DNA of 64,000 bases, taken from a virus. Lineage: Duplodnaviria > Caudoviricetes. The notes under the pieces are model-generated. The model ran no database searches and had not been told where the DNA came from. It was given only the letters and a program-made list of their open reading frames with translations. The translations under genes were made by a program, and so were the position numbers. Location of the stretch: the IMG/VR virus record IMGVR_UViG_3300008116_000002; one strand, given 5' to 3'. This document shows positions 14,740 to 17,369 of the stretch, piece by piece (positions within the stretch are counted from its first letter, which is position 1; every line of letters starts with the position of its first letter).

Positions 14740-14780
14740 GAACCCCCGGGATCCCTTACCCGGTAATATTACTAGGGGGT

Positions 14781-14946
14781 ATTGACAGCCACAATGTCAG
14801 GGTGTCGAGATCGGAGCTACCTCAAAACTCCTGGGAAGGAGTGACGAAAAGTCTCGAAGGACAGCGCTGCAACTGACCTTAATAAAAGCGGACGGACAGT
14901 GAAACAACTCAGGAAAGGGCGAGTGCTGGGTGCTCGTAGCTTTCCA
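14781..14946 (+). ncRNA. Putative structured ncRNA A ending in CCA
   Basis: GC-richer intergenic stretch with several stems; GAGCTAC/GTAGCTT helix followed by T-CCA; shares a GGACAG..AACAACTC.AG motif with ncRNA B. Confidence 0.5.
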
Positions 14947-14948
14947 TT

Positions 14949-15030
14949 GCCCATGTGGTGAAATGGTAGACACGCTTGCCTTAGGAGCAAGTACGAGAGT
15001 GTGGCGGTTCGAGTCCGTCCATGGGCACCA
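14949..15030 (+). tRNA. tRNA-Leu(UAG)
   Basis: Cloverleaf with variable arm, loop CTTAGGA, CCA. Confidence 0.93.
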
Positions 15031-15730: not shown

Positions 15731-15759
15731 TTGACAAGAAATTGATTCGGTGTTATAAT
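15731..15759 (+). promoter_or_regulatory. Strong sigma70-type early promoter
   Basis: TTGACA-17 bp-TATAAT with extended TG. Confidence 0.88.
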
Positions 15760-15788: not shown

Positions 15789-15929
15789 ATGCAACGAAAA
15801 CGTATCGCCAAGCCCCGTAACCCGCTGGTGGCTTTGGCATTGTTTAAGAAAGCGGGTAAGCATCAAAAAACAAACAAAGCATTACGTAGGGAATATAGAG
15901 CGGGCATAGCTCAGTTGGTAGAGCAGTAG
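15789..15929 (+). CDS. Small Lys/Arg-rich protein whose stop lies inside tRNA-Lys (46 aa; missed by the ORF track)
   Basis: SD TAAGGAG; MQRKRIAKPRNPLVALALFKKAGKHQKTNKALRREYRAGIAQLVEQ*. Confidence 0.75.
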   Translation: MQRKRIAKPRNPLVALALFKKAGKHQKTNKALRREYRAGIAQLVEQ

Positions 15930-15975
15930 ACTTTTAATCTATGTGTCGTGGGTTCGAATCCCTCTGCCCGTACCA
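15900..15975 (+). tRNA. tRNA-Lys(UUU)
   Basis: Cloverleaf, loop CTTTTAA, CCA. Confidence 0.95.
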
Positions 15976-16056
15976 TATTAAAACACATTTCGAGCGGTGT
16001 TCCGATATCGGCCAGCCCGCCCCAAAGTAGATGTCTAGGGTAGTGTGTTTTAATAT

Positions 16057-16405
16057 GGTGAAGAAGCAAGGTTGGGATTTCGTCAGATAATGACGGTGCG
16101 CTGAAAAAACCCAGTAATGCGAAGCCGAAAGGCATCCTTGCGGTAAGCAGAAAGTTGGCGTGGCGACCAATCATCATAAAGTTCCGGTTACTACTTTCCT
16201 GAAAGTAGCGTATGGTAAACGAGAAAGTCCCGGTGGCTATGGCACCGTTAGCGAGACATAGACTCTGTATTTCGATGCGGTGTCTCCGGTGTCTCAGACA
16301 ACATAGCAACGTGGACACTACGCAGCAAACCGCTATTAGTGTTTGGACAGGGCAACAACTCCAGCATAGGGGCGATCTGTGGAAAGACGTGGCCTAAGCA
16401 AGAAT
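16057..16405 (+). ncRNA. Putative large structured ncRNA B (about 350 nt)
   Basis: Many stems in an AT-rich genome: GCAAGG/CCTTGC, CGTCA/TGACG, GCC-GAAA-GGC, CTACTTT/AAAGTAG, CGGTG/CACCG, GAGACA/TGTCTC with an inner UUCG hairpin; no credible ORF; flanked by tRNAs. Confidence 0.6.
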
Positions 16406-16410
16406 ACGAT

Positions 16411-16486
16411 GGTGTCTATAGTGTAGTGGTCTGCACGCCAGATTGTGGGCCTGGCAGTATGAGTTCAATCCTCATTAGACACCCCA
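16411..16486 (+). tRNA. tRNA-His(GUG)
   Basis: G-1 and C73, loop TTGTGGG, CCA. Confidence 0.9.
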
Positions 16487-16540
16487 AAGTTAATCGCGTG
16501 TGAGGCGTGGGGCTTCGGCCCCTAACCTATTTGTACTTGT

Positions 16541-16630
16541 GGAAGTGTGGCAGAGTCCGGTTTATTGCAACAGTCTTGAAAACTGTCGAACAGAAATGTT
16601 CCGTGAGTTCGAATCTCACCGCTTCCGCCA
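16541..16630 (+). tRNA. tRNA-Ser(UGA)
   Basis: Long variable arm, loop CTTGAAA, G73, CCA. Confidence 0.95.
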
Positions 16631-16805: not shown

Positions 16806-17369
16806 ATGCCTGCAATTTTTTTAGTTAGTGATACTCATTTCGGCCATGCAGGCGTTTGTAAATTTCTACGTGACGATGGCACTAAATTACGTCCATGGGA
16901 TAACCCCGAGGACATGGATGAAGAAATGGTCAAGCGGTGGAATGAAACTGTTAGACCAAAAGATAAAGTTTATCATTTAGGAGATGTAGTTATTAATCGA
17001 AAGGCTTTAAAAACGCTTAGTAGATTAAACGGTGAAAAGGTCTTAATCAAAGGTAATCACGACATCTTTAAACTTGAAGAATACACTGAGTATTTTAAAG
17101 ATGTTCGAGGTTATCATGTACTGAATGGAATGATTCTAAGCCACATTCCTATTCATGAAGAAAGCCTTGCGAGGTTCGGGACTAATATTCATGGACATCT
17201 ACATTACAATCGTGTAAAGAAAAATGAAGTCATTGATCCTCGTTATCACTGCGTATGTGTAGAGCATACCGACTACCGCCCAATTCTTTTTGAGGATGTC
17301 ATTAAAAAGATTCAAGAAGAGGGTGGGCATATTGGATTTAAAAATGGCAATGGACCTATTATAGATTGA
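16806..17369 (+). CDS. Calcineurin-like metallophosphoesterase
   Basis: SDTHFGH, HLGDV, KGNHD, SHIP, IHGHLH motifs. Confidence 0.93.
   Translation: MPAIFLVSDTHFGHAGVCKFLRDDGTKLRPWDNPEDMDEEMVKRWNETVRPKDKVYHLGDVVINRKALKTLSRLNGEKVLIKGNHDIFKLEEYTEYFKDVRGYHVLNGMILSHIPIHEESLARFGTNIHGHLHYNRVKKNEVIDPRYHCVCVEHTDYRPILFEDVIKKIQEEGGHIGFKNGNGPIID

Follow-up and report, generated by a model that had tools for sequence, protein, structure and literature searches.

Two probable non-coding RNA genes between tRNA-Lys and tRNA-His of a phage tRNA array, one of them from a family absent from Rfam

The window analysed here is a stretch of 64,000 nt (IMG/VR record IMGVR_UViG_3300008116_000002) from a phage that encodes a T4-type family-B DNA polymerase and a DnaB-like helicase, together with long proteins of the tail fibre and baseplate. 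No close relative of this phage was found among 50,697 GenBank phage records. ARAGORN detects 25 tRNA genes in it, all on the + strand, between 14385 and 24087. Two of them, tRNA-Lys(UUU), with an encoded CCA (15900-15975, + strand; Rfam tRNA, 71.8 bits), and tRNA-His(GUG) (16412-16486 by ARAGORN, or 16411-16486, + strand, with the candidate G-1 read from the sequence at 16411), flank a gap of 436 nt in which a large structured RNA had been predicted. Both the gap and its GC-rich composition, as described in that original prediction, are borne out: the GC content is 0.46-0.50, like that of the tRNAs, against 0.27-0.37 in the adjacent coding DNA. Upstream, a consensus sigma-70-type promoter (TTGACA-17-TATAAT with a TG, 15731-15759, + strand), called from its 12/12 consensus match only, heads a segment made of a mini-ORF, tRNA-Lys, a hairpin spacer, two stretches that we call RNA A and RNA B, tRNA-His and tRNA-Ser.

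The hairpin spacer (15972-16059, + strand) is closed by a perfect 16-bp terminal stem (inverted repeat I1) and has homologues in L014/L015, L005, L041 and L007. The ACCA that ends tRNA-Lys opens the 5' arm of this stem, and the first five bases of the helix that closes RNA A, in its 5' strand, are also part of the 3' arm. Because this strand is shared, the spacer stem and the closing helix are mutually exclusive, and would correspond to precursor and mature folds. Similar CCA-to-AUGG stems also flank tRNA-Glu and tRNA-Leu (repeats I2 and I3). On the other side of the gap, between tRNA-His and tRNA-Ser, positions 16508-16524 form a GC-rich, UUCG-capped hairpin that was called terminator-like and has no clear U-run; it may serve in processing or stability.

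A 17-nt motif common to both spacer RNAs of the array retrieved IMG/VR loci with homologues. Most of these align only to the 3' two-thirds of the flagged stretch, which is RNA B, while the 5' third, RNA A, matches separately. RNA A is the rarer of the two: it was found at 16 loci, B being also present in all 14 A loci examined, and A was not seen at 63 of 77 B loci. The two are set apart in five lineages, with tRNA genes intervening in L039 and L005, and with 200 to 700 nt between them, in either order, in L130, L142 and L124. Three other lineages, represented by the window, L147 and the L014 group, have them abutting, with 1-2 nt between. The single RNA of about 350 nt originally proposed is thus better described as two cassettes of about 123 and 230 nt, and the flagged stretch appears to consist of two non-coding RNA genes that are independent of each other, A (16055-16177) and B (16179-16410).

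It could be argued that in the window phage A and B nevertheless form a single functional unit, a composite RNA of about 355 nt. The short spacing in the window, L014 and L147 lineages means that the two might stay joined there, an obvious cut site such as a tRNA or a long linker is missing between them, and A is confined to loci that also hold B. We find this unlikely, however, given that five other lineages place A 200 to 700 nt up- or downstream of B (with tRNAs between in two of them), that A closes on itself by its own covarying 6-bp terminal helix, that most B loci do without A, and that the first base of the conserved fold of B does not change with what lies ahead of it, A or a tRNA. 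Regions of phage arrays that look 'large ornate' in this way are best annotated as strings of separate RNA cassettes.

RNA A (about 123 nt, 16055-16177, + strand) folds into seven helices, including one pseudoknot, in an alignment of 10 distinct sequences. Its closing helix P1 (16055-60/16172-77) encloses P2 (16066-71/16136-41), P3 (16074-76/16110-12), P4 (16081-85/16091-95), the pseudoknot P5 (16099-101/16119-21), P6 (16124-26/16131-33) and P7 (16154-58/16167-71), all on the + strand. P6, which is optional, is the GAAA-capped hairpin already noticed in the original prediction (16124-16133). The 31 pairs are 98.7% paired, against 23-53% in slid controls, and seven of them show compensatory change among the 10 distinct sequences.

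RNA B (about 230 nt, 16179-16410, + strand) has ten helices, four of which are pseudoknots. The covariance model that had been suggested as a check, called R1 here, was built from 30 clade-1 sequences, the window copy being one of the seed members. Its match to the window (16179-16409, model positions 1-198, 201.8 bits, E 2.8e-69) is therefore guaranteed by its place in the seed; a further 27 sequences, not used in building R1, reach 80-127 bits. The fold was scored on the 30-sequence clade-1 alignment, with slid partners and 500 shuffles as controls: the 43 pairs are 94.6% paired, against 35-43% once partners are slid, and compensatory change is seen in 18 pairs, a number that none of the 500 shuffles equals. 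About 45% of positions are invariant across the 57 distinct homologues.

At the 5' end of B, three elements make up what we call the 5' lock (16183-16208), defined by pair counts and by compensation across classes. In pseudoknot PK3 (16183-85/16381-83), the 5' UCC pairs with GGA in the loop of the 3'-terminal hairpin Ph; in pseudoknot PKa (16186-87/16198-99), the following GG pairs with CC in the loop of the hairpin Pa (16191-96/16203-08). PKa and PK3 vary little within clade 1, and it is across clades and sister classes that repeated compensation is found, namely GG/CC, CG/CG, AG/CU, UG/CG, CCUG/CAGG and CGGC/GCCG for PKa, and UCC/GGA, UCU/AGA and ACC/GGU for PK3.

Next come helices Pc (16214-16/16228-30) and Pb (16231-34/16244-47), both within 16214-16247. 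Pc shows pairs of the GC, AU and GU types, its third pair being weak in the window's own clade, and Pb shows an A-U for C-G swap in 7 sequences. The Pb loop takes part in pseudoknot PK1, in which GCUAUG pairs with CAUAGC (16236-41/16302-07; 100% paired, with two compensatory pairs). Between the two strands of PK1 lies Pvar (16254-16295), a clade-specific inserted hairpin that appears in the alignments as an insertion relative to R1, most family members having only a short hairpin at this position; within it is the UUCG-capped hairpin of the original prediction. From the 3' strand of PK1 onwards (16302-16344), S1 (16309-11/16321-23) and S2 (16313-18/16339-44), the latter with both-sided changes in five of its six pairs, cross each other to form a compact pseudoknot that has a small inner hairpin. 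The 3' module (16364-16410) consists of an outer helix, Pout (16364-70/16393-99), enclosing Ph (16372-74/16388-90), whose UGGA loop closes PK3, and of an 11-nt tail (16400-16410) that reaches G-1 of tRNA-His. All these elements are on the + strand. Taken together, the alignments describe a fold that is closed on itself, two pseudoknots tying its first conserved bases and two more knitting its middle, and we hold the identity and fold of B with high confidence.

Between S2 and the 3' module lies a near-invariant, apparently unpaired 17-mer, GGACAGGGCAACAACUC (16345-16361, + strand), recognised from conserved columns and as a direct repeat (D11) with 14894-14910. The family consensus, GGACAGGGUAACAACUC, is common to B and its sister classes. 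Together with what follows it (16345-16399), it forms the family signature of the window copy: the 17-mer, an outer helix, a GGGC-hairpin-GURGC element, and a loop pairing with the 5' end. The 17-mer could be engaged in tertiary pairs, which would be invisible in invariant columns. Comparison by eye with the 16S 790 loop, tRNA D-loops and RNA A gave complementarity of 5-7 nt only, which is at chance level. An 11-nt GAAA tetraloop receptor was also considered and rejected, the UAUGG and CCUAAG that would form it being located in separate covarying helices (PK1 and Pout) and changing freely.

The case for structure is comparative and rests on covariation. Stems had been counted in the original prediction; they are not evidence in themselves, because the folding energy of single sequences is no better than that of shuffled ones (MFE z-scores of -0.48 for the gap, -0.54 for RNA A and -0.48 for RNA B), and the MFE fold fails to reproduce the one supported by covariation. 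A conserved structure is nevertheless recovered in both RNAs by covariation. The absence of a credible ORF, on the other hand, was rightly noted: the sole sizeable same-strand ORF in the gap, 16212-16397 (61 codons), is not conserved, its start ATG being replaced by GUG or GUU in relatives, and the longest ATG-ORF on either strand has a median length of 35 aa across the 57 RNA B homologues. We therefore rejected it as a hidden gene.

A profile search yielded 77 full-length copies of B, 57 of them distinct, in uncultivated phage contigs, and 67 further sites that match the 3' module alone (the 3' 70 nt). There is one copy per locus, and it follows the orientation of the tRNAs strictly: 1005 tRNAs in B loci are on the strand of B, and none on the opposite one. 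B starts within 5 nt of a tRNA 3' end in 17 of 64 copies, and ends within 5 nt of the next tRNA in 17 of 61. Upstream, the nearest tRNA is Glu more often than any other (25/64); downstream, Asp (21/61) and Lys (17/61) are the commonest; in the window, the neighbours are Lys and His. The pattern of the 3' module occurs at 72 viral loci, against two contigs in a one-genome-per-species set of 185,579 prokaryote species; R1 matches neither of these contigs, and no real cellular match was found in that set. In the 50,697 GenBank phage records, no match to B was obtained at E<=10. The Rfam search proposed with the original prediction returned nothing credible for the gap even at E<=10 (Rfam 15, positions 15950-16560), and, with gathering thresholds applied, nothing but tRNAs across the window; a full-text literature search found no published description of the B family. 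B thus belongs to a large RNA family that Rfam does not contain and that is restricted to the tRNA arrays of uncultivated large phages. It had been suggested that the RNA could be a new class or a reduced relative of GOLLD or ROOL; for B, which falls in no catalogued family, the first possibility is retained, and the second finds no Rfam match.

The window itself holds a diverged paralogue of B, of a sister class, between tRNA-Asp and tRNA-Leu (14755-14955, + strand; 30 bits with R1, E 6e-9). It aligns over the full length of R1, has the 17-mer and the 3' module in common with B, and shows, by eye, ACCC/GGGU at the position of PK3. Other sister-class RNAs score 32-60 bits with R1, also at full length. 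Fifteen loci have, besides B, a sister copy in the same orientation, and each of the four complete genomes examined (214-365 kb, the records of L015, L026, L050 and L039) has exactly two R1 family members. In the records of L015 and L026 the two copies are 120-165 kb apart, and in that of L015 on opposite strands. Such spacing indicates that the second family copy is not always in the same array.

Among 128 family loci, no strictly linked protein partner was found. The commonest protein neighbour is a Metallophos_2 phosphoesterase, present in 36 of them, and genes for a dual-specificity phosphatase and an RNaseH_like protein (PF04308) also recur near family loci. In the window, a calcineurin-like phosphoesterase (Metallophos_2, phrog_547) is encoded just past the array segment, at 16806-17369. 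These recurring neighbours could be RNA end-healing enzymes.

The question arises as to how A and B are produced and what they do. Our overall explanation, to which we give a probability of about 0.5, is that the gap contains two RNA genes, that B belongs to a family of phage tRNA arrays, that both RNAs would be released by tRNA processing, and that B would act in trans. A and B are co-oriented with the tRNA array and appear well placed for such a release, in agreement with the co-processed structured RNA first proposed. The consensus promoter at 15731-15759 would drive a common transcript of both and of tRNA-Lys, tRNA-His and tRNA-Ser, from which the enzymes that mature tRNAs would excise A and B: an RNase P cut at the 5' end of tRNA-His would create the 3' end of B, and endonuclease cuts in the short AU-rich linkers the remaining ends. 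B would then persist as a stable, nuclease-protected RNA, a stability favoured by the locking of both its termini in the fold. We infer the excision and stability of A and B from the gene layout.

As for the role of B, the 17-mer and several joiners are invariant while the helices covary, which points to partner recognition or catalysis rather than to a spacer, and the restriction of the family to large tRNA arrays suggests a role in tRNA metabolism or translation. B might thus act in trans through its invariant strand and joiners, which a conserved protein or RNA partner in these processes would recognise, and the two sister classes would have non-redundant roles. This binding role, suggested by sequence conservation, is proposed tentatively, with rather less than an even chance of being right. 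A bolder version, and not a likely one, is that B, together with its sister class, makes up a new class of functional RNA specific to large phages, with exactly one copy of each sister class required per genome, either as a ribozyme that works on tRNAs or their precursor, or as a two-component RNA that would bind and re-tune a core part of the host tRNA or translation machinery. At about 200 nt, highly conserved, multiply pseudoknotted, confined to phages and present as two non-identical copies per genome, the B family is well suited to structure determination, ribozyme assays and pull-down work.

Instead of being a substrate of the tRNA-maturing enzymes, B could be a catalytic or cis-acting processing element, for instance a ribozyme that would cut its own 5' edge and free tRNAs without host enzymes. 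Its extreme 5' end is engaged in two pseudoknots, an arrangement known from ribozymes with their cleavage site at the 5' end; many of its single-stranded positions are invariant, and 17 copies start 0-5 nt past a tRNA CCA; the phosphoesterase and dual-specificity phosphatase genes found nearby would then possibly heal the ends produced. However, 47 of 64 copies are not immediately preceded by a tRNA, the 2-4 nt ahead of the conserved UCC are variable, so that the context of a cleavage site is not conserved, and no Rfam self-cleaving ribozyme or RNase P matches at E<=5-10. Moreover, an element present once per array cannot process 25 tRNAs in cis. We hold this scenario to be distinctly unlikely.

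Self-assembly of B with its sister class into an RNA-only particle, homo- or hetero-oligomeric, has its model in GOLLD and ROOL, whose cages form without protein (PMC12286853). The genomic niche is the same, a true GOLLD even lying 100 nt upstream of B in L036, and the two sister copies of complete genomes would fit a two-component assembly. Yet GOLLD and ROOL exceed B in size by a factor of three to four, a conserved palindromic free loop is absent, and the whole-length duplex energy, a crude measure, does not set cognate B/sister pairs apart from non-cognate ones (-80.4 against -79.4 kcal/mol, with scattered ranks). A particle of this kind is very unlikely.

The strict linkage of B to large phage tRNA arrays would also suit a decoy or inhibitor of host defences that attack tRNAs (anticodon nucleases and similar), encoded beside the replacement tRNAs. 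Among the nearest tRNAs of B, those for Glu, Asp, Lys, Tyr and Asn predominate, and these are typical targets of tRNA-cleaving nucleases. This bias may, however, be inherited synteny; an element resembling an anticodon stem-loop is not conserved, and linkage to defence or counter-defence genes was not found at family loci, so that such a role seems most improbable. Finally, that the gap is functionless, made of decayed tRNA genes or spacer, agrees with the non-significant MFE z-scores and is practically untenable, being already contradicted by the covariation and conservation of B (18 compensated pairs, about 45% invariant positions in 57 distinct homologues), the fold of which is not tRNA-like, at a place where neither ARAGORN nor Rfam sees a tRNA.

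The preferred reading, two RNA genes released from a tRNA precursor, invites comparison with RNAs already known. That phage tRNA clusters hold extra stable RNAs has been known for fifty years, first from T4 RNA C/D and later from GOLLD and ROOL, and to our knowledge none of these has an assigned function. Among RNAs described elsewhere, known self-cleaving ribozymes (hammerhead, HDV-like, twister, pistol and hatchet) were rejected, none having an Rfam match in the window or in ten relatives. The exclusion of tmRNA and RNase P in the original prediction also holds. For tmRNA, there is neither an Rfam match nor an ARAGORN call over A and B. Genes for a betaproteobacterial-type tmRNA (137 bits) are found near the arrays of two B-carrying phages (L005:13913-14302 and L125:8311-8690), a type that gives a clue to the host group.

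RNase P RNA (RF00010/RF00011, and the reduced type T) is, like B, pseudoknotted and tied to tRNA processing. In the window copy of B, GAGAAAGUCC recalls CR-I, and a conserved strand containing ACAG is also reminiscent of RNase P. The bacterial A/B, archaeal and type T models nevertheless have no match, at E<=10 in the window and at E<=5 in ten homologue loci. The CR-I-like bases vary within the family (AGAUCC, UGACCC or AAUCCA in relatives) and belong to helix Pc, and no P4-type pairing, as made by CR-I (GAGGAAAGUCC) and CR-V in RNase P, could be drawn in B. We therefore rejected this assignment.

GOLLD and ROOL are phage-borne, elaborately pseudoknotted and located near tRNA islands (PMC12286853). 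They differ from B in size, 600-800 nt or more against about 200-230 nt, and in also occurring in bacterial prophages, whereas B was not found in the genomes of 185,579 prokaryote species. GOLLD (RF02032, gathering threshold 150 bits) was rejected for want of an Rfam match at E<=10 in the window and at E<=5 in ten homologue loci, and ROOL (RF03087) likewise has no Rfam match in the window or homologue loci. The true GOLLD of L036 (L036:1381-1845, RF02032, 214 bits) has an embedded tRNA and ends about 100 nt upstream of the B copy at L036:1943-2142. The GOLLD model thus does detect a real GOLLD at that locus, adjoining its B and not over it.

The last system to be compared is that of the species 1 and species 2 stable RNAs of T4 (rnaC, 139 nt, and rnaD, 119 nt). 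Descent from them, raised in the original prediction in the form of a reduced relative, is contradicted by the absence of any R1 match in the T4 tRNA region (L118) at E<=1, and the 17-mer or another common motif is absent there. There are also differences of structure: rnaC ends in a tRNA-like T-arm, whereas B has none, is larger and is multiply pseudoknotted. The likeness is one of arrangement. According to the T4 annotation, rnaC and rnaD are non-tRNA genes within a tRNA cluster, co-oriented and abutting like A and B, and there are two of them per genome, as is the case for the B family.
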